A stretch of DNA of 64,000 nucleotides, from NCBI GenBank assembly GCA_963840805.1, contig CAWJAJ010000016.1:290609-354608 (forward strand). The letters run 5' to 3'. The notes beneath the pieces are model-generated. The model ran no database searches, was not told the DNA's origin, and worked only from the letters and a program-made list of their open reading frames with translations. The position numbers and the translations under genes are program-made. The stretch's first letter is position 1, and every line of letters starts with the position of its first letter. Source of the DNA: an uncultured beta proteobacterium. GTDB taxonomy: Bacteria; Pseudomonadota; Gammaproteobacteria; Burkholderiales; Burkholderiaceae_C. Shown in pieces: positions 2,095-63,360 of the stretch.

Positions 2095-3771
2095 AGCACC
2101 GATCCGCGCGCGGCGTACCAATCCTGCACCTGCGGCGCGACGGCGCCTTCGATGCGGCTGCGCCGGATCTTCATCGTCGGCGTCAGGCAGCCGTTCTCGA
2201 TCGACCAGGGCTCGCGCGCCACCACGATCATGCGCAGCCGTTCGTAGTCGGGCCGCTGGCCGTTCACCTCCTGCAGCAGATGCTCGAGTTCGCCCTGCAC
2301 CTGCGCGCGCACGGCCGCATCGCCGACGCGCGGGCGCAGGCTTTCGGCCAGCACGACGATGGCGTAGGCCGACGGCTGGCCGACGCCGGAGACCATCGAC
2401 AGCTCGACCATCGGATGGGCGTTGAGTTCGTTCTCGATCGGCGCCGGCGCGACGTACTTGCCTTTGGCGGTCTTGAACAGTTCCTTGGCGCGGCCGGTGA
2501 TCTTCAGCAGCCCGTCGGGCCTGCGCTCGCCGAGGTCGCCGGTGCGGAAGAAGCCGTCGTCGGTGAACGACGGCGGCCGTCAGTTCCGGCTGCTTGTAGT
2601 AGCCGCTGAACTGCCCCGGCGACTTGATCAGGATCTCGCCGCTCTCGCTGAGGCGCACCTGCACGCCGGGCAGCGGCACGCCGACATAGCCCGGCGCGTT
2701 GAACTGGTCGTTGGAGGTGTGCGAGTACGAGCTGTCCTCGGTCATGCCATAGCCCTCGAACAGCTTCAGCCCGAGGCGGCGGTACCAGGCGATCAGCTCG
2801 GCCGGGATCGGCGCCGAGCCGCTGCCGGCCAGTTGCACCTGGTCCAGCCCCAGGCCCTTGAGCACCTTGCGCGCGACGATGCGCCCGAGCGATCGGGATG
2901 CCCAGCAGCCGGTCGAGCTTGGCCGGCGGCATCTTGGCGAACACGCCCTGCTGGAACTTCAGCCACAGCCGCGGCACCGAGATGAACAGCGTCGGGCGCG
3001 CGCGCTGCAGGTCCTGCAGGAAGGTGTCGAGCGATTCGGCGAAGAACACGTGCATGCGCGCCGTCGACCAGCGACGCCGCCTCGACCCACGAGCGCTCGA
3101 AGCTGTGCGCCAGCGGCAGGTACGACAGCATGCGGCAGCTCTGCACGCTGCCCAGATGCGCGCTGCTGGTAGCCGACGATGCCCTCGCCGGCGCGCGTGA
3201 AGGCGCCGAAGCTCACCATCACGCCCTTGGGCTGGCCGGTCGAGCCGGAGGTGTAGATCAGCATCGCCAGTTCGTCGGCGCCGCGGCTGGCGCGGCCGGC
3301 GAGCGGCGGCGTGCGCGCGACGATCGCGTCCCAGGTCTCGAACATCGGTGCGCGGCGCGAGCGGCAAGGCGATGCGCGGCAGGCCGGCCGGCACGCCCGG
3401 CTGCCTGCTGCGCCCAGTTGTCGAGCTTGCCGACGAACAGCAGGCTGGCCTCGCTGTGCTGCAGCACGAAGCGCACCGTCTCGGCCGTCTCGGTCGGGAA
3501 GATCGCCACCGTGGTGTAGCCGGCCATCCAGATCGCCAGCTCGGCCATGAAGAAGTGGGCGCAGTTCTTCGACAGGATCGCGATGCGCGCACCGCGCTCG
3601 AAGCCGCGGCCCTGCAGGTGCGCCGCCATGCGGCTGCGCCTGGTCGAGCACCTGCGCCCAGGTGTAGTCGACGACCTGCCCGCCGCCCACCGGCTGCGTC
3701 AGGAAGACCTGGTCCGGCTGCGCAGCGGCGTGGTCGTGGATGTAGTCGAGGATCAGCTTCGGTGCGGGCAT
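2085..3771 (-). pseudogene. AMP-dependent acyl-CoA synthetase/ligase (long-chain-fatty-acid-CoA-ligase-like), multiply frame-disrupted as assembled
   Basis: ATG at 3771 (MPAPKLILDYIHDH...). AMP-binding motifs IYTSGSTGQPKGV and EGYGMTE, and the C-terminal KIRRSRIEG, are spread over at least 6 minus-strand frame segments. Stop at 2085. Confidence 0.8.
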
Positions 3772-4406
3772 CGTTTCCTTCTCGGCGCAGGCACGCCACG
3801 CGGCGCGGCTGCCCACTGTGCGGGTCGGACGCGCTGCCGTCACACGGGGTTTTCCTTGGGGGCAACGGCGCGTGCCGGCTCGGCTTCGGTAGCGCACCGC
3901 ACCAGTCACGAGGCATTGCTCGTGCGGGACGCCGGAGCAGCCGACGGCAGCCGACCCGTCTTGTGAGTTCGACTCCACCTCAGCGAACGTCGGCGAAGTC
4001 ACCTCGAGCGGACCGCTTCAGACTGATCCCGGCCACTCGTGATCAATGGCCCGGACAGCGGCTGTCGCAATCACCCGTCGATCGAGGACGTCGGCCTCGA
4101 TCGACGGCTGCACCTTCGTCACCGGTCACTCGACCGTGGCCGGCCGGGTGGAGGTTCGCGAATGACTCCTTGCGCCCGCGGTGATCGGCTGTACCCGACC
4201 CTGAGCCGACGTCCGCTGCCCTGAAATCGGCGCCCTACAGCGGTCGGTCGGACCTGCATCGTCGCGGACAGGGGTGCGGCACCAGTTGGAGCCGGAACGG
4301 GCTACCCTTGCGCGCTGGCCCGGGACCACTTGCCTGGGCGCCCACGGCGCTGCGTCAAACGCCCGTTTTGGCGCACCCCACGTCCAGGTGCGGGTCGCGC
4401 CGCTGT

Positions 4407-8192: not shown

Positions 8193-9355
8193 TCAGGCGG
8201 CTGCGCGCGCCGACACCTTGGTGCCGAGGATGCGCGCGAGCGCGCGATCCAGGTTGGCCAGCGTGCGGTCGGGGTGGTGCAGCTTGTCGAGGCCGAACAG
8301 GCCGAGGCGGAAGGTCTTGAAGTCGGGCCCCTCGTCGCATTGCAGCGGCACGCCCGCGGCCGATCTGCAGGCCTTCGGCGAGGAAGGCCTTGCCGCTGTG
8401 CAGGCCGTCGTCGTCGGTGTAGCTGACGACGACGCCGGGCGCCTGGAAGCCCTCGGCGGCCACGCTGCGCGAAGCCCTTGGCGGTCGAGCAGCGCGCGCA
8501 CGCGGCGCCCGAGCTTCGATCTGCTCGGCGCGCAGCTTGTCGAAGCCGTAGTGCGCGCGTCTCCAGCATCACGTCGCGCGTGCGCGTCAGCGCGTCGGTC
8601 GGCAGCGTCGCGTGGTAGGCGTGGCCGCCGCCTTCGTAGGTTTCCATGATCTGCAGCCACTTCTTCAGGTCGGCGGCGAAGCTGGTGCTGGTGGTGCCGT
8701 CGATGCGCGCGCGCGCGCGCTCGCCGAGCATCACGAAGGCGCAGCAGGGCGAGCCGCTCCAGCCCTTCTGCGGCGCGCTCACCAGCACGTCGACGCCGGT
8801 GGCCTGCATGTCGACCCACATCGCGCCGGAGGCGATGCAGTCGAGCACGAACAGGCCGCCCACCTCGTGCACGGCGTCGGCCACCGCGCGCAGGTAGGCG
8901 TCGGGCAGCATCATGCCGGCCGCGGTTTCGACGTGCGGCGCAAACACCAGCGCGGGCCGCTGCGCGCGGATCGTGGCAACGACCTCCTCGATCGGCGCCG
9001 GCGCGAACGCGGCCTGGCGGCCCGGCGCGACGCGGCGCGCCTTCAGCACGGTGTGCTCCGACGGGATGCTGCCCCATCTCGAAGATCTGCGTCCAGCGGT
9101 AGCTGAACCAGCCGTTGCGGATCACCAGCGCCTTGCGGCCGGTGGCGAACTGGCGCGCCACCGCTTCCATGCCGAAGGTGCCGCTGCCCGGCACGACGAT
9201 CGCCGAGCGCGCGTGATAGACCTCCTTCAGCACGCCCGAGATGTCGCGCATGACCGCTGGAACTTCTGCGACATGTGGTTCAGCGCGCGGTCGGTGTAGA
9301 CCACCGAGTACTCGAGCAGGCCGTCGGGATCGGGTTCGGGCAGCAGGCCGGGCAT
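8193..9355 (-). pseudogene. Class V aminotransferase (PLP-dependent), multiply frame-disrupted as assembled
   Basis: ATG at 9355 (MPGLLPEPDPDGLLEYSVVY). The segments GSGTFGMEAVARQF, VLVSAPQKGWSG (PLP lysine), GVVVSYTDDDGLHSGKAF and FRLGLFGLDKL lie in at least 4 different minus-strand frames. Confidence 0.75.
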
Positions 9356-34449: not shown

Positions 34450-34537
34450 CGCTGTCGCCTGTCCGGGGCCGGCGATGCTGCGCCAGAATGACCGGTCCGC
34501 CAACTCCCGACCGCGGCACGAGACGCGGGCACCTGCC

Positions 34538-35606
34538 ATGCCGACCACCACCGCCCCGCGCCGTCCGCTGCACATCGGCATCCTCGGCTGCGCCAACATC
34601 GCCAAGCAGTTTTCGCGCGACGTGGCGCCGAGCCCGGCGGTGCGCATCGTCGCGGTGGCCAGCCGCAACGCCGACACGGCAGCGGCCTTCGCCGCGGCGC
34701 AAGGCATCGGCCGCCATCACGGCAGCTACGAGGCCCTGCTGGCCGACGCCGACGTCGATGCCATCTACCTGCCGCTGCCCAACAGCCTGCACGCCGAGTG
34801 GGCGATCAAGGCCGCCGCGAGCGGCAAGCATGTGCTGTGCGAGAAGCCGCTGGCGCTCGGCCACGCCGAGGCGCAAGGCGATGTTCGACGCCGCGCGGCG
34901 CCATCGCGTGATGCTGCTCGAGGCCTACCCGTACTACTTCCAGCCGCAGACCGGCGCGCTGGTGGCGCTGTTGAACGAAGGCGCCATCGGCACGGTGCGC
35001 TCGATGCAGTCGTGCTTCGGCTTCACGGTGTCCAACCCGCAAGCCAACATCCGCATGAAGCCCGAACTCGGCGGCGGTGCGCTGCTCGACGCCGGCAGTT
35101 ATGCGCTGAGCGTGATCCGGCTGGTGATGGGCTGCGCGCCGCAGCGCGTGCGGGCCGATGCCACCTGGGCCGACAGCGGCGTGGACATCAGCCTGATGGC
35201 GACGCTGTACTTTGCCGACGGCCGCCGCGCGCAGCTGTCGTGCGCGATGGATGCGGCCAACCACCGCCGCGCCACCATCGTCGGCAGCGCCGGCACGATC
35301 GAGACCGAATACTTGAACCACACCGGCGCGCTGGCCGGCGGCCGACCGGACAACGCCTACGGCTACCTGCCCAGCCAGTTGCGCGTGCGCCGCGGCACCG
35401 CCAACACGATCCCGTTCGAGGACATCCAATGCGGCAGCGGCAGCGGCTTTCGCTTCGCGGCCGAGGCCTTTGCCCGGGTGGTCGCCGAAGCGGACTTCGC
35501 GGCCATCGAGCGCGCGGCGCAGGCCAGCCTGGACATCGCCGCCACGCTGGAGGCGCTGGCGCGCAGCGCGCGGCTCGGGCATGCGGTGGACGTGGCGGCC
35601 GACTGA
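34538..35606 (+). pseudogene. Gfo/Idh/MocA family oxidoreductase (second copy), one frame shift near 34870
   Basis: LHIGILGCANIAKQF.., HVLCEKPLAL, then the frame switches to ..MFDAARRHRVMLLEAYPYYFQP... Confidence 0.8.
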
Positions 35607-35816: not shown

Positions 35817-36818
35817 ATGAAGATGCATGCAGGATGCGAGCGCGGAAGACTGGCCGCGGCGGCGCTTGCAGTGGCGGGTTTGCTGGTGGCCGGCTGCGGC
35901 ACGACACCGGGCAGAGACAAACCGCTCGAAGCCATCTTTGAGGCCGTGGCCTCTCCCGACGGCAGGCTGATTGCCGCATCGACGATCTATGACGAGGTGG
36001 CCCTGTTCGATCGCGCGCCGCTCAGGTTCGCAGCGATGCTCTCGCGGGAGACCGACCGGCACGAGTGGCGTGCGAAAGATCCACAGAAGAGACCGTTTCC
36101 CCACTTCTCGAGCCCCCTGCTGGCGTTCACGCCCGATGGAACGACGCTCGTGGCCGCCGGGATTGCGGGGCGACTCGTGGCCTGGGACCTGACCTCGCGC
36201 ACGGAGAAGTACCGCGTCGAGGTGGGCGACGGCGTGCTCGCGATGGCGGTCACGCCCAACGGGCTGGAGATCGTGACCGCTGGACCGGACACGGTTGTCT
36301 GGAGCGCGAAGAATGGTTCGCGGACGGGGCAGCTCACGCTTCCAGCCGGCACGCAGGCCATGTCAGTCGCGGTCTCTCCCGATGGACGGGTCGCGCTGGT
36401 CGGGCTCTCTGACGGGCGCATCGCAGTGTTCGAAGTGGCGTCCCGGCAACTGCTGCGGACGCTGCCGGGGCACTCGATGCCGGTGTATGGCGTGGCCTTC
36501 TCGCCCGACGGGTCGATGTTTGCGAGCACTGCGGGGCAGTACGACCCACGGGTCTGGAAGGCCGACCCGATGGGCGAGTTCACGACCGGCGAACGGGCTG
36601 CGGCACCGGCCGCGGCCGGCGAGGGTTGTTGCTCCGGTGCGAATGCTGGCAAGGAGCACTTGGCCACGACCGTGCCACTCAGACGGACTTGCGTTCGATC
36701 GCAATGGGTCGTCCGCCTGCGCGTGCCGAGGCAGTGGCGGTTTGCACCCGGCGTTGGCGCCGACCGAAATCAATTGGCGACGACGCGGAGCAGCAGCCAC
36801 ACCGGCAGGCCGAGGTAG
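35817..36818 (+). CDS. WD40/beta-propeller-repeat lipoprotein; 3' end uncertain
   Basis: Lipobox LLVAGCG. Repeated ..SPDG..L(V/I)A.. blades (VASPDGRLIAAS, AFTPDGTTLVAAG, AVTPNGLEIVTAG, AVSPDGRVALVG, AFSPDGSMFAST). The last ~60 codons look non-protein-like and overlap the convergent gene. Confidence 0.6.
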   Translation: MKMHAGCERGRLAAAALAVAGLLVAGCGTTPGRDKPLEAIFEAVASPDGRLIAASTIYDEVALFDRAPLRFAAMLSRETDRHEWRAKDPQKRPFPHFSSPLLAFTPDGTTLVAAGIAGRLVAWDLTSRTEKYRVEVGDGVLAMAVTPNGLEIVTAGPDTVVWSAKNGSRTGQLTLPAGTQAMSVAVSPDGRVALVGLSDGRIAVFEVASRQLLRTLPGHSMPVYGVAFSPDGSMFASTAGQYDPRVWKADPMGEFTTGERAAAPAAAGEGCCSGANAGKEHLATTVPLRRTCVRSQWVVRLRVPRQWRFAPGVGADRNQLATTRSSSHTGRPR

Positions 36819-39199
36819 AGCGCCGCGAGGCCGAGGCGCTCGAGCCAGCGCCGGGTGCCAATGGCCTGTCCGGGGCGCAGCAGCACCGCCACCAGCGTGC
36901 CGGCTTCGATCGCCGCGCGCAACGCCGCGGCGCACAGCACGACGCCGATCGCCCAGGCGGCCCACCAGAGCGCAAAGGTCGTGAGGTAAGCCAACAGGCC
37001 GAACGTGTAGTACTCGCCAAAGGCGCTGCCGTACGCGATGTGCTGGTGCAGGCGGAACGCCGGAATTGCGAGCGCGAACGGGAACAGGACGAATTTCGCG
37101 AGCGGTTGGTCAAGGCGCCCGCGCCGGATGGCCTGCCGGGCTTGCGCATACGTCGTCGCGCGCGAGGGCGTGCTTGCCTGCGCCGCGGCGCCACCGGCCG
37201 CGGCCAGCGCCCGGGCCAAGGCCGTGGGATCGGCGTGAGCGAGCCCGTACCGCCAGCGCTCGCCGGAGGCCAGCCGCAGCCAGGCGCCGGGGCCGGGGAT
37301 GGGCACGCGCCACGGCTCGACGGCGACGATGTCCCGCACCGCGAGTTCGAGACGCCGCGCGCCGCGTGTGAGCACGAGCGCGCCATTTTCGATGGAGGCC
37401 CGCGCGGCAAAGGCGAGCAGCACGCACCACGCGGCGGCCTCGGGGGCCAGAAAGAGGGCGGCGAAAGTGCGTATTTGGACGAGCGTGTTCGACTGCAAGG
37501 AACCATCGCCTCGCAGTGCCGCCGCGGCCATCCAGAGCAGGCTGCCGCGCGCGAAGGCACGCAGCAGGCCTGCAGCGAGGCGGGCGGCGGGCGGCAGCAC
37601 GGCGACGTCGGCAGGGACGCCTGCGGCAACGACCGATGCCGACGCTTCTTCCGCGTTTCGAGTGCGCCACATGCGCAACGCCGCCGTCGCAGCCAGCAGC
37701 ACGAGGAACGCCGTGCCGGCGCGCCCGACCCAATCGCCCCAGGCCACCATCAGCGTGCGCGGCGGCTCCTGCACCGGTACCTCCCCGACCACCAGCGTGC
37801 GTTCGCCCATGCGCGTCGCGGCGATCACGCTGCCGGTCGCATCGATCACGGCGCTGTAGCCGTTCGTGGTGACGCGGAATTGGGGCAGGCGCGTTTCGAT
37901 GCTGCGGAACGCCGCCGCGGCCTGGTGCAGTTCAGCACCCTGCGGGTCGGCGGTGAACCAGGAGTCGTTCGACAGGGTCAGGATGGCCTGCCCGCCCAGC
38001 CGGGCCCCGTCGATGACGAGGCCGGTATCCATGTCGTCGAGGCAGATCAACGGAATCACCGGGATCTCGCGGCCGTCTGCGAGGCGCAGCGGGAACACGC
38101 GCGCGCCGGTGCCCGGCCGCCAGGTGCCGGCCCACGGCAGCCAACGCCGGAGCGTCGGCCCGTCGAGCCACGCGGGCACATGCTCGGTGAGCGGGAAGAC
38201 GCGCGTCTTGCGATAGAAGCCGAGCAGGCCCGTGCCGGGCGCCACGAACGCGGCGGCGTTGTATTCGCCGGCCGCATCGCGGTCGTAGGTGCCGAACACG
38301 AACGGCACCGCGGCGGCATTGACGATGCCCAGGATCTCGCGGTCGAGTTCGGCGCCGGCCTCGCTCTTGGGCTGGCCGAAGGTGGTGGGGTACACCGTCT
38401 CCGACCACAGCACTGCGTCCGCGTGCTGCCGCTCGACGGCGTCGTAGCTCATCGCGTAGTGCGTGTCGAGCACTTCGCGAACGACCGCGCCGGCGCCCTT
38501 CTCCCGGCGCAGGCGCTCGTAGTCGACGATGTTCGACTGCACCAGTCCCATGCGCAGGGGCTTGCCGCCCGGCGCGGGCGTGGCTGAGAGCACGGCGAGG
38601 CCGTAACCCGCCAGCAGCAGGGGCACCAGCGCGGCAAGCGCCAGCGGCGTCGCCATCGCGCGGACGCCGTCAGCCCGTCGCGCGAGCGCCGCCGAGATGC
38701 CTTCGTTGGCCAGCAGCAGCAGGACCGTGAGGCCCGCCGCGCCGCCGACATCGGCGGCCTGGCGCAGCAGTCGAGACGGATAGAGCCCGTAGCCGAGCGT
38801 GTCGCCGAGGAGCCTGGGCACGAGCCATTCCGTCGCGACCCATGCCGCGGCGCCGGCGAGCGCGCGCAGCACGGTGCCGTGCCGTTGGCCGGTGACGTGG
38901 CGCACCAGCGCGAAGGCGAGGAATTGCGGCTGGAACAGCGGCGCGGCAAGGAGCAGTACCGCCAGGCCTGCGGCAGTGCCGAGCTGCGTGTAACTGCCGA
39001 TCGCGGTGCCGAACCAGGCGAAGACCGCCGCCGTGTAGGCGACCGACATCGCGCAGGCGCTGAGGAGCGTGCCCGCGAGCGTTCGGTTCGCGTCGAGTGT
39101 GCGCAACCACGGCACGAGGGCTACGAAGCCGAGCAGCCAGCCGGCGCCGCCGCGGGCGTACAGGAACGACAGGAACGCGCTGGCGAGAATGCCAGCCAA
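36770..39199 (-). CDS. Apolipoprotein N-acyltransferase (Lnt)-like CN-hydrolase membrane protein with a ~295-aa C-terminal multi-TM extension
   Basis: Multi-TM N-terminal domain. CN-hydrolase triad candidates are VLWSETV (Glu), FYRKTRVFPLTEHVP (Lys) and IPLICLDD (Cys). A canonical terminal TM is followed by 295 further residues. Start uncertain (TTG 39199 or CTG 39241). Confidence 0.7.
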   Translation of the reverse strand: MAGILASAFLSFLYARGGAGWLLGFVALVPWLRTLDANRTLAGTLLSACAMSVAYTAAVFAWFGTAIGSYTQLGTAAGLAVLLLAAPLFQPQFLAFALVRHVTGQRHGTVLRALAGAAAWVATEWLVPRLLGDTLGYGLYPSRLLRQAADVGGAAGLTVLLLLANEGISAALARRADGVRAMATPLALAALVPLLLAGYGLAVLSATPAPGGKPLRMGLVQSNIVDYERLRREKGAGAVVREVLDTHYAMSYDAVERQHADAVLWSETVYPTTFGQPKSEAGAELDREILGIVNAAAVPFVFGTYDRDAAGEYNAAAFVAPGTGLLGFYRKTRVFPLTEHVPAWLDGPTLRRWLPWAGTWRPGTGARVFPLRLADGREIPVIPLICLDDMDTGLVIDGARLGGQAILTLSNDSWFTADPQGAELHQAAAAFRSIETRLPQFRVTTNGYSAVIDATGSVIAATRMGERTLVVGEVPVQEPPRTLMVAWGDWVGRAGTAFLVLLAATAALRMWRTRNAEEASASVVAAGVPADVAVLPPAARLAAGLLRAFARGSLLWMAAAALRGDGSLQSNTLVQIRTFAALFLAPEAAAWCVLLAFAARASIENGALVLTRGARRLELAVRDIVAVEPWRVPIPGPGAWLRLASGERWRYGLAHADPTALARALAAAGGAAAQASTPSRATTYAQARQAIRRGRLDQPLAKFVLFPFALAIPAFRLHQHIAYGSAFGEYYTFGLLAYLTTFALWWAAWAIGVVLCAAALRAAIEAGTLVAVLLRPGQAIGTRRWLERLGLAALYLGLPVWLLLRVVAN

Positions 39200-39237
39200 C
39201 AGCCGACCGCCGCGCAGAGGAAATGACGCGGTGGTGG

Positions 39238-39973
39238 TCAGCTCCCGGGTCTCCCCGGTTCGGTCGGCGCAGGGATCACGATGCGTCGGATCGGCAAGCC
39301 GGGCGGGGCGAGCTCCGGCGGCACGACGCGGTCCTTCGGGATCGCGATCGGTTGGTTGGCGGCGTCGAAGAATTGGTGGTCCGGGCGAGTACATCAGGAT
39401 CGGCTCGATGCGCTGGCCGTCGTCGGTCGCCTGGTAATGACGGACGTAGCCTTCGGGGAGCACGAAATCCTCGGGCACCGCGAGCCCGACCAGGGGCGGG
39501 CGGGTGCCGGGCGGTGAGAAGGCGCCGAGGCCGGAATGGACGCCGGCCTGGTGCAGGCGCTCGATCACCTCGGCCATCGTCGGTCGCTCGCCCTTGTTGA
39601 CGAAGTCGGAGATGTCAGGCGTCAAGTCGCCGTCCGGGTCGCGCGTGCGCGATATCTGCTGCGTCGCGGCAGGAGCCGGACCGCTCGCTGCAGCCACTGG
39701 CCGTGCCGGGGCGGCGGGAGCCGCGCTGCTCGCCGCGGCCGCTGCGCTTACCGGCGCGGCGGCCGTCGCACTGCTCGCCGCGACCGCCAACGTTGCCTGG
39801 GTTGCGGTGTCGTCGGCGACCGACACCGGCGTCCGGGACGACAACAATCCATAGGCGAGGCCGCCTGCGACGATCGCCAGCGCGATGGCGAGGTAGCCCA
39901 GAGACGGGCGCCACGGCCGACTTCCGGCGACCGGATCGGTCGGCGTCGGGCCAGAACGACGCGGCCCGTCCAT
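39238..39973 (-). pseudogene. Hypothetical membrane-anchored (N-in, single TM) protein with an Ala/Pro-rich linker; one extra base near 39385 fuses it to the downstream gene in the ORF track
   Basis: MDGPRR..LGYLAIALAIVAGGLAYGLL (TM). Globular part is DISDFVNKGERPTMAEVIERLHQAGV... Removing one G restores ..MYSPDHQFFDAANQPIAIPKDRVVPPELAPPGLPIRRIVIPAPTEPGRPGS*. Confidence 0.6.
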
Positions 39974-39991
39974 GGAATGGCCTGCCGTGCC

Positions 39992-41082
39992 TCAGGGCGC
40001 CGCCGGGTTGGAGGTCGACACCGCCCAGCCCATGCGCTCGTGCCCGTACTGGTTCCAGATCGGGTTCTTGCCGCCCGGTGAACGAGGTGTAGCGTGGCGC
40101 GCCCGAGCCGGTGGTGCCGCCGAACAGGCCGGCGCTGACGGTGCCGCCGGTGTAGGTCGGGTGGGTGTTGTCGGACTGGATGTAGTCGTAGCTGCTGCTC
40201 GAGGACACGAAGTGCGTGTTGGCGTCGCGTAGCGTCGACCGCAGCGTCGACGGTGATGCGGGTGACGTAGCTCGACTCGCTCTCGCCGGCGACGTAGCGC
40301 AGCGCGTCGGAGTCGACCTGCCCGTCGCCGTTGCGGTCGTAGTCGGCGCCCATGTACTGGGCGAAGTTGTCCGCGCACTTGAAGCCCTTTTGCCGCGCGT
40401 ACTCGCACATCCAGTAGTTCATCGTGGCGAGCTTGGGCAGGAACGTGCTCTGCAGGTTGACCGTGGCGCCGGTGCCGGCGTCCGTGCACGAGCTCTGCAC
40501 GTTGTCGGCGGCGTAGCCCGGGTAGTGCAGGTTCGAGATGATCTTCACCTTGGTGCCGGCGTAGGCGTTGGCGTTGATGTAGTCCATCGCGGCCGCGACG
40601 TAGGTCTTGCAGTTGTTCACGGCCGTGTTCATGCCGGCGTAGTTGCAGGTGCCGGTCTGGCTCTTGAAGCTCGAGCGCGCCTGCAGCCCGTCGTTGCCGC
40701 ACATCTCGAAGGTCACCACGCGGGTGGAACTGGCCTGCATGTACGAGCGTTCGGCGACGATCTTGTTGTTGTAGATGTCCGACGCCACCGCGCCGGACTT
40801 GGCGCGCCGGACGCTCTCGATGTCGGTGCTCCACAGCGCGGAGAGGTATTCGGCGTCGACCGTGGGCGCCGCGTACTTGGCCGCGTTGCTGATGGAGCCG
40901 TTGTAGCCGGCGTAGATCGAATCGCCGTAGGCGACCAGGCGGTACTTGGTCGCGGTGTCGGCCCGGTTGATGGTCCAGGAGACGTTCTGGGTCAGCGTGT
41001 TGGCGGCCGCCTCCGAACCGAGGGCCAGCAGGGCCAGGGTGGGCAACAGCGTGCGCAACGCGGCACGAAACAGGGTGCTCAT
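39992..41082 (-). pseudogene. Secreted SGNH/GDSL hydrolase (lipase/acyltransferase-like), at least two frame shifts in the 3' third
   Basis: Signal peptide MSTLFRAALRTLLPTLALLALGSEAAA. Block I VAYGDSIYAGY. DYDRNGDGQVDSD Ca-binding-like loop. The tail ..SSSSSYDYIQSDNTHPTYTGG.. and ..GGKNPIWNQYGHERMGWAVSTSNPAAP* lie in other frames. Confidence 0.7.
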
Positions 41083-41486: not shown

Positions 41487-41915
41487 CTACTTGAGCGTCG
41501 CGTGGAACGCGAGTTCGGGAATGCTCGCCAGGGCCTTGGAGATCGGGCAGTTCTTCTTGGAGAAGTCGACCTTCTCGTTGAAGACCTCGGCGCTGACGCC
41601 CGGCACGACGGCTACGGTCTCGAGTTCGATCTTTGTGACGGTGGGTCCCGCGCCCAGGTGTACCGTGGCCGTTGTCTCGATGCTGGTCGGAGGATGGCCC
41701 GCATTGGTGAGCTGGGCGGCCAGGAACATCGAGAAGCAGCCCGCCTGAGCCGCGCCGATCAACTCTTCCGGATTCGTGCCGCCCGCCGCGCCCTCAAATC
41801 GCGTGGCGAATGTGTAGGGTGCATTCAAGTGCCCCGAGGCGCCCGACATCGAGCCGGCCCCCTCCTTGAGCGTTCCCGTCCACTTCGCGTGAGCTTTCGC
41901 AGTGGCCATGCTCAT
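41487..41915 (-). CDS. osmC: OsmC family peroxiredoxin
   Basis: 142 aa. Both conserved cysteines are present (AQAGCFSM and KNCPISK). Confidence 0.8.
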   Translation of the reverse strand: MSMATAKAHAKWTGTLKEGAGSMSGASGHLNAPYTFATRFEGAAGGTNPEELIGAAQAGCFSMFLAAQLTNAGHPPTSIETTATVHLGAGPTVTKIELETVAVVPGVSAEVFNEKVDFSKKNCPISKALASIPELAFHATLK

Positions 41916-42013
41916 ATCTCCTCGTGTGGTTGAAGTGACGCCTAGGCCTTGACTGTACAAGCGTCGTCATGATCGCGCACAGCGCTGCTGCCCCGCTGCG
42001 TCCAGCAAGGCGA

Positions 42014-42904
42014 TCACCTCCGCTGCCGCCACGCGCTGGGCGTGCGGCCGGTGCTGCGCTGGAAGAAGCGTGTGAAGTAGGCGGCGTCGGCAAACCCCAG
42101 GCCGATGCCGATCTGCTTGATGCTCATCGCGGTGTAGGCCAGTTCGCGCTGGGCCTCGAGCACCAGGCGCGCATGCAACACCTCGAGGGCGCCACGCCCG
42201 AGCACGCGCCGGCAGACGCGGTTCAACTGCGTCGGCGTGATCGCCAGCGCCTGCGCGCAGGCGGCCACCGACGGTTGCTCGCGGTAGCGGCGTTCGACCA
42301 GGCCGCGGTAACGCTCCACGTGCGCCAGCGCGCGCCCGCCGGCGGCGCCGTCGCGGGCGGCGTCCGCACGCGGCAGCCGCGCCACCGCGACGAGCAACTG
42401 CAGCAGCGCGGCATCGAGCGTGCGGGCGCGCCAGCGCCGCAGGCCGTGGAACTCGTCCTGCAGCGTCGCGCAGGCCTGCCGCAGCGCGCGGGCGCCTTCG
42501 TCGCGCAGCGGCGCGACGCGCGCAGCGAACGCCTGGGCCACGAGGGCCGCGTCCTGCCCCAGCACGCTGCGCACATGCGCTTCGGCCGCCGTCACCACCA
42601 GCCCCTCGACGCCCGGCGTGAAACGGAAGCCGTGCACGGACAACGGCGGCACCACCACCACGCAGGGGCCCCGCATCGATTGCGCAAGGCCCTCGGCCAG
42701 CGCCTCGCCGCGCCCCTGCCGCAAGTACAGAATTTGCAGCAGCGCCGCATGGCGGTGGGGCCGGATCTCCCACTCGTGCAGGACGCTGCGCTCGGCGATC
42801 GATTCGCAGTGCAGCCAGTCGAATCCCTCATCGGCATCGGGCTCGCCGTAGAGTGAGTAGGTCGGCAGCAGCGCCGGCGTCGCGGCGCGGGTGGGCTGGC
42901 GCAT
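42014..42904 (-). CDS. pobR: AraC family activator of 4-hydroxybenzoate hydroxylase
   Basis: Cupin-like N-terminal half plus a C-terminal AraC HTH (..IKQIGIGLGFADAAYFTRFFQRSTGRTPSAWR). Divergent from pobA. Confidence 0.8.
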   Translation of the reverse strand: MRQPTRAATPALLPTYSLYGEPDADEGFDWLHCESIAERSVLHEWEIRPHRHAALLQILYLRQGRGEALAEGLAQSMRGPCVVVVPPLSVHGFRFTPGVEGLVVTAAEAHVRSVLGQDAALVAQAFAARVAPLRDEGARALRQACATLQDEFHGLRRWRARTLDAALLQLLVAVARLPRADAARDGAAGGRALAHVERYRGLVERRYREQPSVAACAQALAITPTQLNRVCRRVLGRGALEVLHARLVLEAQRELAYTAMSIKQIGIGLGFADAAYFTRFFQRSTGRTPSAWRQRR

Positions 42905-42911
42905 GATGTTC

Positions 42912-42925
42912 GAATTGTGCAATTC
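42912..42925. promoter_or_regulatory. Palindrome GAATTG-TG-CAATTC in the pobR-pobA intergenic region (candidate PobR operator)
   Basis: Perfect 6-bp arms, 8 bp upstream of the pobR start and 82 bp upstream of pobA. Confidence 0.35.
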
Positions 42926-42946
42926 AAGGTCCGATCCGTCCATTGA

Positions 42947-44191
<1,245 letters not shown>

Positions 44192-58983: not shown

Positions 58984-60102
58984 TCATGCCCCGTCCAGTG
59001 CGGTGCGTACCCGCTCGCCGATCGCCAGCGCCGCAGTAAGCCCCGGCGACTCGATGCCGAACAGGTTGGCGAGCCCCGGCACGCCGTGCACGTCGGGGCC
59101 GTCGATGGCGAAGTCCTGCGCCGTTTCGCCCTGGCGGCTGAGCTTCGGACGCACGCCGCTGTAGTCGGGCTGCAGGCTGCCGTCGGGCAGGCCCGGCCAG
59201 TAGCGGCGGATCGCAGCGTAGAAACTCTCGCCGCGCGCGGCGTCGACGCCGTAGTCGATCGCTCCGTCATCGGGCAGCCACTCGGTGTCGGGGCCGAAGC
59301 GGCCCTGGCCGGCAAGGTCGAGCGTCAGGTGCACGCCCAGGCCCGCCGCCTCGTGCAGCGGGTAGATCAGGCGCGAGAACGGCGCGCGCACCCCGCTCAA
59401 CGTGAAGTAGTTGCCCTTGCAGCGGTGCGTGCGGCGCACGTGTTGCGGCGCCAGGCCCTCGATGCGCGCGGCGACCGCGCTGGCCGCCAGCCCGGCCGCG
59501 TTGACGAGGCAGCGTGACTGCAGGCGCATCGGCTCGGCGCCGCCGACGTCGAGCACGAAACCGCCCTGCACCACCCGTGCGGCCACGAGCGGGCACTTCA
59601 GCGCCAGCGCCGCGCCATGGTCCTCGGCCTCGCCGAGCAGGCTCTGCATGAAGCCGTGGCTGTCGACGACGCCGGTGACGCTCGAATGCAAGGCCGCGGT
59701 CGCGTGCAGCGCCGGCTCGAGCGCGCGCGCGGCGGCAGCGTCGATCAGCCGCAAGCCTTCGACGCCGTTGGCCTGGGCATTGCGCGCCAGCTGCTCGAGG
59801 GCCGGAAGCTGGTCGTCGTGCGTGGCCACCAGCAACTTGCCGCAGAGGCGGTGTGCGATGCCATGCGTCTCGCAATACGGGACCAGCAGGCGGCGGCCCT
59901 CGACGCACAGCCGCGTCTTCAGCCAGTCGGCCTGCGAATACAGCCCGGCGTGGATGACCTCGCTGTTGCGCGCGCTGGTGACGCTGCCGATCGCACCCTC
60001 CGCTTCGACGATCACCACCTCGTGGCCGGCCCGCGCCAGCGCACGCGCGATCGCCAACCCGACGACGCCGGCGCCGACGACGACGCAGCCGACGCGCTCC
60101 AT
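58984..60102 (-). CDS. FAD-dependent oxidoreductase (DAO family; L-2-hydroxyglutarate oxidase-like)
   Basis: 372 aa. VVVGAGVVGLAIARALA..., ..NLFGIESPGLTAALAI.. Confidence 0.8.
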   Translation of the reverse strand: MERVGCVVVGAGVVGLAIARALARAGHEVVIVEAEGAIGSVTSARNSEVIHAGLYSQADWLKTRLCVEGRRLLVPYCETHGIAHRLCGKLLVATHDDQLPALEQLARNAQANGVEGLRLIDAAAARALEPALHATAALHSSVTGVVDSHGFMQSLLGEAEDHGAALALKCPLVAARVVQGGFVLDVGGAEPMRLQSRCLVNAAGLAASAVAARIEGLAPQHVRRTHRCKGNYFTLSGVRAPFSRLIYPLHEAAGLGVHLTLDLAGQGRFGPDTEWLPDDGAIDYGVDAARGESFYAAIRRYWPGLPDGSLQPDYSGVRPKLSRQGETAQDFAIDGPDVHGVPGLANLFGIESPGLTAALAIGERVRTALDGA

Positions 60103-60104
60103 GC

Positions 60105-60749
60105 TCAGGCACTCACGGCGGCGGCTGCCCGCGCGCGGCGCCTGCGCGCCGCCGCGGCCGGCGGGCTGACGGCCGGCAAGCCGCCGAAGAACAGCTCGGC
60201 AACGATCGGCGCCAGCGTGTCGTGGCTCAGCGTGCCGCCGGGCTTCATCCAGGTGAAGGTCCAGTTGATCATGCCGAACAGCAGCATCGCCAGCGGCGTG
60301 GCCAGCGGCGCCAGGTCGGGCCGCACGCGCGTGATCGCTGCGGCGAAGGCCGCCACGACGCGGCGCTGGCCCGCTTCGACCTGCGCGCGCTCGGCGTCGT
60401 GCAGGAACTTGACGTCTTCGGTGAGCACGCGGTGCGCATGTTGCGCATCGGCATACGCCGCGGTGAAGCGGCGCAGCAGCGCATCGAGCTCGGCCGCCGG
60501 TGGCAGCCCTTCGGCCTTCACCGCGGCGACCAGCGCTTCGAGCCGCGCCACGTGGTCGCCGGCGATCTGCGCCAGCAGCGCATGCTTGTCGCGCACATAG
60601 TGGTACAGCGTGGCCTTGCTGACCGCACTGGCCGCGGCGACCTCGTTCATCGACGCCGCGGTGTAGCCGCGCCGCGCGAACAGCTCGGCGGCGCGCCGCA
60701 GGATCAGCGCGCGCTGGTCGTCGTAGCTGGCGGCACGGGTGCGGGACAT
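60105..60749 (-). CDS. TetR family transcriptional regulator (downstream of paaE; possible paa regulator)
   Basis: HTH FARRGYTAASMNEVAAASAVSKATLYHYV; 214 aa. Confidence 0.8.
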   Translation of the reverse strand: MSRTRAASYDDQRALILRRAAELFARRGYTAASMNEVAAASAVSKATLYHYVRDKHALLAQIAGDHVARLEALVAAVKAEGLPPAAELDALLRRFTAAYADAQHAHRVLTEDVKFLHDAERAQVEAGQRRVVAAFAAAITRVRPDLAPLATPLAMLLFGMINWTFTWMKPGGTLSHDTLAPIVAELFFGGLPAVSPPAAAARRRRARAAAAVSA

Positions 60750-60766
60750 GACCGGGTGCCGCCGCG

Positions 60767-61921
60767 TCAGCGTTCGTCGAACGACAGCACGACGCGGTCG
60801 GTCAGCGGGTGGGCCTGGCAGGTGAGCACGAAGCCGCTGGCGACCTCGGCCTTGTCGAGCGCGAAGTTGCGCTCCATGCGCACCTGGCCTTCGACGACCT
60901 TGGCGCGGCAGGTGCCGCAGACGCCCGAGGTGCAGGAGAACGGCACCTCGAGCCCGGCCGCAGAGGCGCAGTCGAGGATGCTGGCCTGGTCCTTGCGGAA
61001 CGCGATCTCGCGCCGCAGGCCGTCGCGCACGATGACGACGCGCGCGTTGTCGGCGTCGCCCGGCAGCGCCTGGTGCACCACGGCACCGCCGGCCTGTGGC
61101 GCGAGGCCGAAGCGTTCGATGTGGATGCGGTCTTCGGGCACACCGGCGGCCAGCAGCGCCGCCTCGGCCTCGTCGTTCATCTGGAACGGCCCGCAGACGT
61201 AGACATGGTCGATGCCCGCTGCCGGCACCACGCTGGCCAGGAACTCGGCGATCTTGTCGCGGTTCATCGGGCCCCTGTTCAGCGGCGCGTCCGGGCGCCG
61301 GGCCGCCCCAAGCCCGGACAGCACCCCCTCGGGGGGCGCGAGCGCAGCGAGTTGGGGGTCCACACCCTCGGTGACTTCGTCGGAGAACACGTGGTGCAGC
61401 ACCAGCCGCGTCATGGTGCGGTTCTTCAGGTCCTCGAGTTCCTCCTTGAACATCGTCGACTGCAGCCGGCGGTTGCCGTAGATCAGCGTGAAGCGGCTCG
61501 CCGGTTCGCGCGCCAGCACGGTCTTCATGATCGACAGGATCGGGGTGATGCCGCTGCCGCCGGCGATGCCGACGTGGTGCCGGTGCGCGGCGGCGTCCAG
61601 CGGCACGAAGAAGCGGCCCTGCGGCGCCATCACGCCGATCGTGTCGCCGGGCTGCAGCCGTTCGTTGATCCAGTTCGAGAACAGCCCGCCCTTGACCTGG
61701 CGCACGCCGACACGCAGTTCACCGTCGTCGACGCCGGCGCAGATCGAGTACGAACGCCGCAGGTCCTGGCCGTCGATGGTCTTGCGCAGCGTCAGGTACT
61801 GGCCCTGCGTGAAGCCGAAGACCTCGCGCAGCGCCGGTGGCACGTCGAAGCTGACGATCACCGCCTCGGCAGTGTCGGGTTCGATGCGGCGCACCGTCAG
61901 GTCGTGGAACAGGCTCGACAT
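60767..61921 (-). CDS. paaE: Phenylacetyl-CoA 1,2-epoxidase reductase subunit
   Basis: 384 aa. RSYSI FAD motif, GGSGITP NAD motif, C-terminal 2Fe-2S CTSGVCGTCRAKV. Carries a repeat-derived insert (see 61290-61358). Confidence 0.88.
   Translation of the reverse strand: MSSLFHDLTVRRIEPDTAEAVIVSFDVPPALREVFGFTQGQYLTLRKTIDGQDLRRSYSICAGVDDGELRVGVRQVKGGLFSNWINERLQPGDTIGVMAPQGRFFVPLDAAAHRHHVGIAGGSGITPILSIMKTVLAREPASRFTLIYGNRRLQSTMFKEELEDLKNRTMTRLVLHHVFSDEVTEGVDPQLAALAPPEGVLSGLGAARRPDAPLNRGPMNRDKIAEFLASVVPAAGIDHVYVCGPFQMNDEAEAALLAAGVPEDRIHIERFGLAPQAGGAVVHQALPGDADNARVVIVRDGLRREIAFRKDQASILDCASAAGLEVPFSCTSGVCGTCRAKVVEGQVRMERNFALDKAEVASGFVLTCQAHPLTDRVVLSFDER
61290..61358. repeat. REP-like element copy lying in-frame inside paaE
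   Basis: CCGGGCGCCGGGCCGCCCCAAGCCCGGACAGCACCCCCTCGGGGGGCGCGAGCGCAGCGAGTTGGGGG aligns along its length with the 63.2-kb units. It is translated as ..VDPQLAALAPPEGVLSGLGAARRP.. Confidence 0.6.
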
Positions 61922-61932
61922 CGTGCGTGCCT

Positions 61933-62425
61933 TCAGATCGGCTTGAAGTGCTCGAATGGCTCGCGGCAGTCCAGGCAGCGGTGCAAGGCCTTGCACGCGG
62001 TCGAGCCGAACGCCGACAGCCGCTCGGTGTGGGCGCTGCCGCAGCGTGGGCAGGCCAGCGCCTCGGCACGGCGCAGGATGCGGATCGGCGAACCCTGCCC
62101 TGGCGGCACCGGGCCCGGCGGCGCGATGCCGTACTCGCGCAGCTTGCGCTTGCCGGCCTCGCTGATCCAGTCGGTGGTCCAGGCCGGCGCGCGCTGCAGT
62201 CGTCACCCGCGTCGGGCCCAGGCCGGCGGCGTCGAGCGCGTCGATGACGCTGCGCTGGATGACTTCGGTGGCCGGGCAACCGCTGTAGGTCGGCGTCAGC
62301 ACGACCCGCAGGCCGCCGCCATCGGCGCACACGTCGCGCACGATGCCCAGGTCGCGCAGCGACAGTGCCGGCAGCTCGGGGTCGGGCACCTGGTCCAGCA
62401 CGGCCCAGGCGGCTTGCACGTTCAC
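61933..62425 (-). pseudogene. paaD: Phenylacetate-CoA oxygenase subunit PaaD, frame shift near 62200
   Basis: DUF59 part VLDQVPDPELPALSLRDLGIVRDV..LTPTYSGCPA.. The C-terminal Cys-rich tail ..CPRCGSAHTERLSAFGSTACKALHRCLDCREPFEHFKPI* is in another frame. GTGA overlap with paaC. Confidence 0.8.
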
Positions 62426-63207
62426 CACGCGCCTCCCGGAAAACTGCGCTGCAGGCACTGCATCTCGGCCAGCAGGCGGCCCATGTGCTCGCTGTGCACG
62501 CCCAGCGAGCCGGTGCTGCGGAAGGCGCCTTCGGCCGGTATGCGCAAGCCCGCCGCGTCGAACACCGCGGCGATCTCGGCCTGCCAGGCTTCGCGCAGCG
62601 CGCTGCGCGCCGGGCCCAGGCCGCTGGCCACGGCCGCCGCATCGACCTCATCGGCGGCGAACATCTCCGGCACGAAGCGCCACAGTTCGGCCAGCGCCGT
62701 CTCGACGCGCCGGCGCGATTCGTCGGTGCCGTCGGCCAGCCGCACGACCCAGTCGGCCGCGTGCTGCTGGTGGTAGCGCGCCTCCTTGACGGCCTTGCCG
62801 GCGATTGCAGCCAGCTCGGCATCGCCCGAGTGCTGCAGCCGGTCCCAGTGCAGCTCGAGCCAGGTGGCGAGCATCAGGTTGCGCAACACCGTGAAGGCGA
62901 AATCGCCGCGCGGCAGCTCGGCGATCGTCAGGTTGCGGTAGTCGCGCTCGTCGCGCAGGAAGGCGAGTTGGTCCTCGTCGAACGTGCGATCCCTGCCCTG
63001 GCCCTCGATCTGGCCAGCCCGCGTCAGCAACGCGCGCGTCTGGCCGATCAGGTCGAGCGCGACATTGGCCAGCGCGATGTCCTCCTCGAGCACCGGCCCG
63101 TGGCCGCACCACTCGCCCAGCCGCTGGCCGAGGATCAGGCAGGTGTCGGCGAGGCGCAGCAGGTACTGCACCTGCGGCGTGAAGTCGAGCGAGATCGAGG
63201 CGGTCAT
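62422..63207 (-). CDS. paaC: Phenylacetyl-CoA 1,2-epoxidase subunit PaaC
   Basis: 261 aa. MTASISLDFTPQVQYLLRLADTCLILGQRLGEWCGHGPVLEEDIALAN... Confidence 0.88.
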   Translation of the reverse strand: MTASISLDFTPQVQYLLRLADTCLILGQRLGEWCGHGPVLEEDIALANVALDLIGQTRALLTRAGQIEGQGRDRTFDEDQLAFLRDERDYRNLTIAELPRGDFAFTVLRNLMLATWLELHWDRLQHSGDAELAAIAGKAVKEARYHQQHAADWVVRLADGTDESRRRVETALAELWRFVPEMFAADEVDAAAVASGLGPARSALREAWQAEIAAVFDAAGLRIPAEGAFRSTGSLGVHSEHMGRLLAEMQCLQRSFPGGAW

Positions 63208-63360
63208 CTCAGGCCAGCGCCGGGCCGCTCCCAAGCGGCCTGAGCTCCCCTCGGGGGACGCGAACGAAGTGAGCTGGGGGCGGAGATCTCAGGCCAGCGC
63301 CGGGCCGCTCCCAAGCGGCCTGAGCTCCCCTCGGGGGACGCGAACGAAGTGAGCCAGGGG
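63201..63360. repeat. Two tandem 80-bp REP-like units filling the paaB-paaC spacer
   Basis: 63206-63274 is identical to 63286-63354 (69/69). Each unit has hairpins GGCCGCT-CCCA-AGCGGCC and CCCC-TC-GGGG. Confidence 0.85.

Follow-up and report, generated by a model that had tools for sequence, protein, structure and literature searches.

What is the role of a gene that resembles apolipoprotein N-acyltransferase (Lnt) when it lies beside genes for a secreted lipase-like enzyme and a membrane-anchored protein, outside the usual company of lnt? The question is raised by a locus in a 64,000-nucleotide stretch of DNA (hereafter the window; contig CAWJAJ010000016.1 of GenBank assembly GCA_963840805.1, positions 290,609 to 354,608, forward strand) from an uncultured beta proteobacterium of the Burkholderiales. 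An initial annotation, made from the letters alone, had described here three co-directional minus-strand genes as an uncharacterized operon of a composition not known from any described system. Reading of the sequence recovers these genes, denoted below g1, g2 and g3, with gaps of 18 and 38 base pairs (bp), and our literature search likewise found no description of the gene set. The locus consists of four protein modules: a secreted SGNH enzyme (g1), a bitopic protein (g2), an Lnt-like domain and a C-terminal extension of g3 (ext). As its genes stay linked in many loci and no function has been described for them, we consider this cassette a good candidate for a new system of envelope acylation or lipid editing. 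Its features are as follows (aa, amino acids; TM, transmembrane; ORF, open reading frame).

39992-41082, minus strand: g1, secreted SGNH/GDSL-type esterase or acyltransferase (SGNH motif blocks, signal peptide)
41002-41082, minus strand: g1 signal peptide, residues 1-27 (predicted signal peptidase I site A-x-A, then N-T-L-T-Q-N-V-S-W-T-I)
39974-39991, minus strand: g1-g2 spacer, 18 bp (read from sequence)
39238-39973, minus strand: g2, bitopic protein, corrected length 244 aa (cytoplasmic tail, one TM helix, Ala/Pro/Ser linker, conserved C-terminal domain)
39200-39237, minus strand: g2-g3 spacer, 38 bp if g3 starts at TTG 39199 (read from sequence)
36770-39199, minus strand: g3, 809 aa, intact ORF, stop codon 36770-36772
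37685-39199, minus strand: Lnt-like domain of g3, eight TM helices and a periplasmic CN-hydrolase domain (Pfam, TIGR00546, Foldseek)
38399-38401, minus strand: g3 triad codon E267 (alignment with E. coli Lnt)
38207-38209, minus strand: g3 triad codon K331 (same alignment)
38042-38044, minus strand: g3 triad codon C386 (same alignment)
36770-37684, minus strand: ext, residues ~506-809 plus stop, an independent five-TM module (HMMER family, AlphaFold2)
37199-37408, minus strand: PH-like beta-sandwich plus helix of ext, residues 598-667, predicted cytoplasmic (AlphaFold2, weak Foldseek matches)

Linkage of the four modules

A scan of one genome per species, covering 185,579 species genomes, detected the ext motif in 224, and the best 80 of these 224 belong to the Burkholderiales and Lysobacterales. 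When linkage of the fused type was counted by tblastn in 83 genome loci from these two orders, the order g1-g2-Lnt-ext proved collinear in 71, and 11 of the other 12 loci are cut by a contig end. In the remaining one (L026), g3 is truncated and neither g1 nor g2 was found despite 8 kb of upstream flank; there (L026:7104-8888) g3 ends at residue 213 and abuts unrelated sequence, so that an insertion or rearrangement is possible. Clustering of all ORFs in the genome loci revealed no other conserved neighbors of the cassette, and the flanks vary between loci. Complete genomes with the cassette include those of Piscinibacter sp. XHJ-5 (CP123228.1), Ramlibacter sp. MMS24-I3-19 (NZ_CP190017.1) and Noviherbaspirillum autotrophicum (JWJG01).

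Moreover, the linkage is kept where the genes are not fused. Metagenomes scanned with stand-alone ext proteins as seeds contain a split form: ext and g1 converge and adjoin each other, and an unfused Lnt-like gene (g3N) comes immediately after g2, in two gene orders (g3N<-g2<- ext-> <-g1 and ext-> <-g1 <-g3N <-g2). Of the 63 split loci with one or more partner genes, 57 have ext convergent and adjacent to g1, and independent gene calls for one 7.0-Mb genome (ERZ25039588 contig_1259) and a Candidatus Binatia metagenome-assembled genome (MAG) give the series g1(+), ext(-), g2(+), Lnt(+). Separate ext genes occur in Binatia, Acidobacteriota and delta-type MAGs, and, by source name, the homologs come from Binatia, Vicinamibacterales, Deltaproteobacteria and Thermodesulfobacteriota MAGs. 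Identity in these comparisons is 44-50% for the Lnt-like protein, 32-43% for ext and 41-61% for the g2 domain. Altogether, about 100 loci, spread over several bacterial phyla, keep the linkage, and each component is represented by ~2,000-2,800 protein clusters, from Burkholderiales, Lysobacterales, Binatia, Acidobacteriota and others.

The pairing follows a pattern: g1 always has ext as its partner, and g2 always directly precedes the Lnt-like gene. Judged by this gene order, the set is made of two sub-modules, [ext-g1] and [g2-Lnt], which as a rule occur jointly and, in the Burkholderiales/Lysobacterales form, are fused; as gene-fusion evidence goes, the joining of ext to the Lnt-like domain is a Rosetta-stone link between them. 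The reading as an uncharacterized operon with conserved neighbors thus has strong comparative support.

Several loci stand apart from this pattern. Some carry ext alone (L125, L127); in the first of these (L125:7007-8825) the stand-alone ext gene overlaps with the 3′ end of a gene for a monofunctional transglycosylase (Pfam Transgly, 4e-47) and is preceded by two AMP-binding-type genes, with no g1, g2 or Lnt-like gene nearby, so that the context is uninformative. Fused-type cassettes at 51-86% identity were also found in MAGs labelled Smithella, Acidobacteriota and Chitinophaga pinensis (L006, L036 and L065), a placement that probably reflects binning errors or recent horizontal transfer. The idea that the cassette belongs to anti-phage defense was considered and dropped, as PADLOC gave no match for g1, g2, g3 or ext.

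Protein modules and their reading frames

The initial annotation had noted an extra domain in the Lnt-like gene. The domain is indeed present, but an exhaustive HMMER search with residues ~506-809 recovered 331 representatives, which include both fused proteins of 810-840 aa and many stand-alone proteins of 275-300 aa (30-45% identity); by its occurrence, then, it is an independent protein family, fused here to the Lnt-like domain. The family alignment shows an invariant core, F-R-x-H-Q-x-I-A-Y-G-G-x-F-G-E-Y, together with a Trp, two Glu and one Arg, and g3 of the window carries the conserved motif as F-R-x-H-Q-H-I-A-Y-G-G-x-F-G-E-Y. The family has no match in Pfam, NCBIfam or the Protein Data Bank (PDB). 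The AlphaFold2 model of residues 530-809 (predicted local distance difference test, pLDDT, 70-87) consists of a TM hairpin, a six-strand beta domain (strands within 598-654) capped by a helix (658-667), and three long TM helices. Bacterial PH (bPH) proteins are marked by a TM hairpin followed by a PH-fold domain; the model has a TM hairpin, then six strands and a helix, the Foldseek matches of the beta domain to PH domains (Rtt106, GRK2, SSRP1) are weak (E 0.07-0.3, root-mean-square deviation ~3.5 A, ~70 columns), and no Pfam bPH match was found. The positive-inside rule, applied to the model, would put the PH-like domain in the cytoplasm, along with the invariant Glu and Arg residues, and the HQHIAYG motif in the periplasm.

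The N-terminal part of g3 was described initially as an Lnt paralog that keeps candidates for the Glu/Lys/Cys triad, and the triad is indeed intact (E267, K331, C386). It matches Pfam LNT_N (PF20154) at 7e-13 and CN_hydrolase (PF00795) at 1e-10, and scores 186.9 bits against TIGR00546, for which the equivalog cutoff is 132.9 bits; homologs of the split type reach 203-216 bits. With E. coli Lnt it shares only 23% identity. In an alignment of 14 cassette sequences with E. coli Lnt, the triad (E267-K335-C387 in E. coli numbering) is invariant, and the cassette proteins keep E343, R352, N412, D413, W415 and F416. They differ at W237 (R, Q or A), Y388 (L, with Y retained in the split type) and E389 (D). 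W237, E343, Y388 and E389 are reported from mutagenesis to be essential in the E. coli enzyme. A phmmer search with g3 alone against all PDB chains returned no match, Lnt structures included; a profile of 28 orthologs retrieved E. coli and P. aeruginosa Lnt at E ~1e-7 over the C-terminal half of the CN-hydrolase domain, and the top Foldseek matches for the modelled N-terminal half of g3 are E. coli Lnt structures. When E. coli Lnt was compared with loci L085-L166, the unfused split-type genes matched at E 1e-21 to 1e-14, against 1.5e-6 for the fused g3 of the window; by this measure of sequence similarity the fused lineage is the more derived of the two.

The start of g3 deserves comment. The ATG of its homologs (L001, L004) corresponds to CTG in the window (39200-39202) and the next codon is TTG 39199, which is the likely start; the CTG in place of ATG may be another sequence error. 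The g2-g3 spacer of the Piscinibacter locus L001 is 35 bp.

The genomic context of g3 is, as had been pointed out initially, unlike that of housekeeping lnt. In E. coli, lnt lies downstream of ybeZ-ybeY-ybeX (corC), whereas the window and the 166 loci compared yielded neither a ybeX, ybeY or ybeZ homolog nor a second Lnt match. A tblastn search of plasmids for lnt returned sequences from Rhodobacterales, Deinococcus, Pseudomonas and similar sources at <33% identity, and none from Burkholderiales. The exact g3 product was absent from the records searched, and the closest locus is on a metagenome contig, at 91% identity. Among Piscinibacter, Albitalea, Roseateles, Ideonella, Rhodoferax and Noviherbaspirillum, the g3 orthologs share 74-91% identity, which is unusually high for lnt across Burkholderiales families; this level of identity, together with the variable flanks, suggests horizontal spread. 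Its patchy distribution, the variability of its flanks and the residue changes make the locus more likely accessory, on comparative grounds, than the housekeeping lnt. The NCBI annotation of g3 homologs reads apolipoprotein N-acyltransferase.

For g1, the features noted initially were all confirmed: a signal peptide with an A-x-A site, the GDS block (AYGDSIYAG) and a DxDxNGDGxxD-type loop, DYDRNGDGQVDSD, to which a DxxH block can be added. The gene runs from ATG 41082 (MSTLFRAALR...) to TGA 39994-39992, and its corrected product has 362 aa, of which ~335 would remain in the mature protein. An alignment of 25 diverse homologs shows that blocks I (GDS), II (KSGA), III (GND) and V (DxxH) are invariant, as are S28, G70, N103, D277 and H280, six Cys and the DYDxNGDGxxD loop; the six Cys fit an oxidizing compartment. 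Matches to Pfam stay below the gathering thresholds (PF13472, Lipase_GDSL_2, 24.6 versus 32.9 bits; PF00657, 19.9 versus 23.6), and precomputed PF13472 matches exist for some g1 homologs only. The junction A-x-A / [N/S/T]-T-L-x-Q-N-x-S-W-T-I-D-R is common to ~70 loci across phyla, and a lipobox Cys occurs in none of them. Because g1 is the most conserved module of the cassette, 60-71% identical even between phyla, its substrate is probably a generic component of the envelope.

The second gene, g2, extends from ATG 39973 to TGA 39240-39238 and was correctly recognized as an anchored protein with an Ala/Pro linker and an unassignable domain. Its predicted topology is N-in, with a periplasmic C-terminal domain of ~100 aa (PGTxP...VPEDxxLPxGYVRHxQxTDDG...RVVPPELAPPGL), the only part conserved between the fused and split lineages. 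Sequence and profile searches of Pfam, NCBIfam and PDB found no relative, and Foldseek with the AlphaFold2 model (pLDDT 56) gave no significant match (best E 1.2). Thus, the searches with the anchor protein and with the extension brought up no well-characterized family.

The three products described initially are all encoded, but g1 and g2, contrary to that description, are frameshifted and not single ORFs. In tblastn searches with intact Piscinibacter and Noviherbaspirillum homologs, g1 is spread over three frames and g2 over two; DNA alignment with two intact loci places two one-base insertions in g1 (~40253 and 40074-40076) and one in g2 (39383-39385). All three fall in G/C runs, and only g3 of the three cassette genes is an intact ORF. 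The window as a whole (G+C ~70%) shows, in a codon-usage Viterbi map, many frame switches on the same strand within presumed single genes, and single-base frameshifts mark these regions:

322-3816, minus strand: region with single-base frameshifts
8194-9354, minus strand: region with single-base frameshifts
34475-35606, plus strand: region with single-base frameshifts

An acyl-CoA synthetase gene (~2000-3816) needs about seven frame switches, after which the joined translation forms one continuous Pfam AMP-binding match (3-384 of 384). Similarly, a GFO/IDH/MocA oxidoreductase gene is split at 34872, with a PF01408 match (2-118 of 120) that spans the junction in the joined translation. A thiamine pyrophosphate-dependent enzyme and a class-V aminotransferase of the window are likewise split by frameshifts. 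The window appears to be a stretch of indel-rich assembly, and because unrelated genes in it are broken by the same kind of one-base indel, the interruptions of g1 and g2 are most likely sequence or assembly errors and not gene decay. The alternative, namely that the cassette is decaying in this organism, with g1 and g2 true pseudogenes and g3 alone functional, could invoke three frameshifts across g1 and g2 against none in the 2.4-kb g3. Zero events over that length, however, are unremarkable at the local indel rate; each event is a single-base insertion in a G/C run; and there are no stop codons or larger lesions beyond the three insertions, the frame-corrected proteins being 74-89% identical to intact homologs. 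The probability of decay is accordingly slim.

Proposed function and alternatives

Lipoprotein maturation ends with the action of Lnt, a drug target, which loads its cysteine with an acyl chain drawn directly from phospholipid. To our knowledge, little is known of the functions of Lnt paralogs beyond AatD and the actinobacterial Ppm fusions. With moderate confidence, we propose that the cassette is a self-contained accessory envelope module in which the four protein modules cooperate at the periplasmic face of the inner membrane, with acyl transfer first and the esterase second; we infer each chemical step, as well as the acceptor and the direction of coupling, from the features described above. 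Given the Lnt fold with its intact triad, the Lnt-like domain would follow the mechanism of its family, moving an acyl chain from a membrane phospholipid to the Cys as a thioester and thence to an amine acceptor, which would be other than, or additional to, the ordinary apolipoproteins. The ext module would dock g1 at the membrane and present lipid to it, so that the fusion of ext with the Lnt-like domain would channel lipid to g1, and g2 would serve as a periplasmic adaptor or as an acceptor-presenting partner of the Lnt-like enzyme. The SGNH enzyme would hydrolyze or edit the output of the acyltransferase, possibly the lysophospholipid by-product or an O-acyl group on the acylated product, and since g1 would act on what the acyltransferase produces, transfer would precede hydrolysis, the reverse of the order assumed in the initial annotation.

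A precedent for this arrangement is the YbbAP-TesA system. Its membrane complex, YbbAP, is proposed to extract lysolipids for TesA, a periplasmic SGNH esterase that docks on it, and Lnt has been named as a source of lysophospholipid (PMC12646458). The two systems share a periplasmic SGNH esterase and an inner-membrane component, with lysophospholipid as the proposed substrate of YbbAP-TesA (PMC12646458). They differ in the membrane partner, which is a type VII ABC transporter there and here a five-TM protein with a PH-like domain, fused to the Lnt-like enzyme. By this analogy, we favor a role for ext as the membrane platform of g1. Such a model would account for the pairing of ext with g1, for the occasional loci that lack an Lnt-like gene, for the lack of acceptor-specific neighbors and for the conservation of g1 across phyla.

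Several observations weigh against the proposal. The likeness of g1 to TesA is confined to the SGNH motifs, and neither single-sequence nor profile searches of PDB sequences found a meaningful relative of g1. No similarity of ext to any transporter or acyltransferase family was detected. The AlphaFold2 models are of low confidence both for g2 (pLDDT 56) and for the Lnt part of g3, where the alignment is shallow (at least 74% identity). Moreover, a minority of the longer loci (L136, L164, L130) hold ext and g1 and no Lnt-like gene nearby, and the Lnt-like enzyme may therefore not be obligatory.

The coupling suggested by the initial annotation, in which the secreted lipase frees an acyl donor for N-acylation by the Lnt-like enzyme, has the co-occurrence of an esterase and an acyltransferase as its sole support and is very improbable. 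The fatty acid that a lipase sets free is not an activated donor, and in a periplasm without ATP or CoA it would be unusable without activation. The scheme also conflicts with the Lnt mechanism, in which the sn-1 acyl chain of a phospholipid is used directly via the Cys thioester (the E. coli thioester structure 6nwr is among the PDB matches). Any coupling of the two enzymes would more plausibly place g1 after transfer, with the lysophospholipid co-product or the acylated product as its substrate. A simpler possibility, that g3 is a housekeeping or redundant apolipoprotein N-acyltransferase whose neighbors are accessory and whose extension only stabilizes the enzyme, would agree with the TIGR00546 score above the equivalog cutoff, the name given to the protein by its sources and the intact Glu-Lys-Cys triad; mycobacterial Lnt is likewise fused, to Ppm1 (PMC3850990, PMC3460810). 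The fused or operon-linked partner in the mycobacterial and corynebacterial Lnt-Ppm (Ppm1/Ppm2) systems is, however, a GT2 polyprenol-phosphate-mannose synthase, which the partner here is not, and the hosts of the cassette are diderm Proteobacteria, Binatia and Acidobacteriota. Compared with Lnt itself (E. coli b0657; TIGR00546; PDB 5N6H, 5XHQ, 6NWR), g3 shares the eight-TM LNT_N and periplasmic CN-hydrolase architecture, the triad and the six further retained residues, but it adds a 300-aa C-terminal five-TM/PH-like module, has changes at W237, Y388 and E389, is never found beside ybeZYX in the loci compared, and is linked instead to an SGNH enzyme and a bitopic protein. A housekeeping role would also sit poorly with the patchy distribution (224 species genomes), the variable flanks and the high identity suggestive of horizontal spread, and it would leave unexplained the strict linkage to three other modules, split forms included. 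We therefore give it a small probability.

Two further alternatives make g1 the recipient of the acyl chain. Characterized Lnt-family enzymes all acylate protein N-termini, and AatD, an Lnt paralog in a dedicated accessory set with a co-encoded secreted protein, N-acylates a non-Cys residue, the N-terminal glycine of CexE/Aap (10.1101/2020.09.23.310854; PMC7478709). By analogy, the cassette paralog may act beyond the housekeeping substrate, and it could N-acylate g1 after cleavage by signal peptidase I, yielding a membrane-held non-cysteine lipoprotein, with ext and g2 as docking factors. The strictly conserved mature start of g1 and its constant encoding alongside the other modules speak for this possibility. 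On the other hand, the first mature residue of g1 is N, S or T where CexE has an invariant Gly; neither an ABC transporter of the AatPABC type nor a secretion partner in the outer membrane is conserved around the cassette; Aat resides on virulence plasmids of Enterobacterales, whereas the cassette occurs in environmental diderm bacteria; loci with ext and g1 and no nearby Lnt-like gene exist; and the invariant catalytic residues that mark g1 as an enzyme in its own right would go unused. On balance, lipidation of this kind is rather unlikely. Alternatively, the Lnt-like::ext protein could load a long acyl chain on the active-site Ser of g1, which would then acylate peptidoglycan, lipopolysaccharide or another polymer. 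The combination of an integral-membrane acyltransferase with an extracytoplasmic SGNH transferase is a recurrent design in the MBOAT-SGNH and AT3-SGNH systems (PatA/PatB, OatA, AlgI/AlgJ/AlgX), whose SGNH-fold enzyme forms an acyl-Ser intermediate (cited in PMC12345273). The convergence and adjacency of ext and g1 and the conserved ext residues predicted at both membrane faces would suit such a relay. But ext has only five TM helices and no MBOAT or AT3 similarity, and no MBOAT or AT3 domain is present in the cassette; there is no known precedent for an Lnt thioester that hands its acyl chain to an SGNH Ser; no acceptor-synthesis genes, such as those for polysaccharide or peptidoglycan, are linked; and the acyl source is acetyl-CoA in those systems, whereas here it is likely phospholipid via the Cys thioester. 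An acyl relay is thus distinctly unlikely. A broader reading, which we entertain only tentatively, would see the cassette as an extracytoplasmic long-chain acylation machine, in which the Lnt-type thioester enzyme passes phospholipid acyl chains to an obligate SGNH partner, either to its N-terminus, defining a new non-cysteine lipoprotein class, or in a relay through its active-site Ser; the SGNH enzyme would then modify a universal envelope component, with ext and g2 as new dedicated factors.

Surroundings and significance

The cassette is flanked by genes without an apparent connection to it, and further assignments in the window are:

35817-36818, plus strand: WD40/beta-propeller lipoprotein, lipobox VAGC, convergent on g3
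41487-41960, minus strand: OsmC/Ohr-like gene, upstream of the cassette and unrelated to it (by reading the translation only)
42014-42943, minus strand: AraC-type regulator, divergent from the 4-hydroxybenzoate 3-monooxygenase-like gene and unrelated to the cassette (by reading the translation only)
42980-44191, plus strand: 4-hydroxybenzoate 3-monooxygenase-like gene, unrelated to the cassette (by reading the translation only)
59014-63210, minus strand: PaaC-, PaaD- and PaaE-like phenylacetyl-CoA oxygenase subunits, TetR-type regulator, FAD oxidoreductase (by eye, joined translation)

The WD40 lipoprotein had been pointed out in the initial annotation as convergent to the operon, and the lipobox was found as described. 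As a partner of the cassette it was rejected, for it is not conserved with it and adjoins it in no other locus compared. The coding signal of this gene stops at ~36591 and the ORF continues into the 3′ end of g3, so that a further frameshift is possible. With respect to regulation, no sigma-70-like promoter was found for the cassette; the single terminator-like match, on the plus strand inside g3, is within shuffle expectation; a search of the locus with Rfam identified no family; and the Shine-Dalgarno sequence is the sole conserved motif of the upstream regions.

The present analysis defines a widespread four-module system, three of whose modules belong to no named family; searches of PADLOC, NCBIfam and Rfam returned nothing for these three or for the locus. 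It also carries a warning, namely that automatic annotation calls the 810-aa fused proteins plain apolipoprotein N-acyltransferase. We regard the cassette as a putative dedicated system built around an Lnt paralog, and there is a real chance that its chemistry is new. The system offers an entry point to the non-apolipoprotein acceptors of Lnt-type enzymes, to how lysophospholipid produced on the outer face of the inner membrane is dealt with, and to the function of a new membrane-protein family with a PH-like domain.

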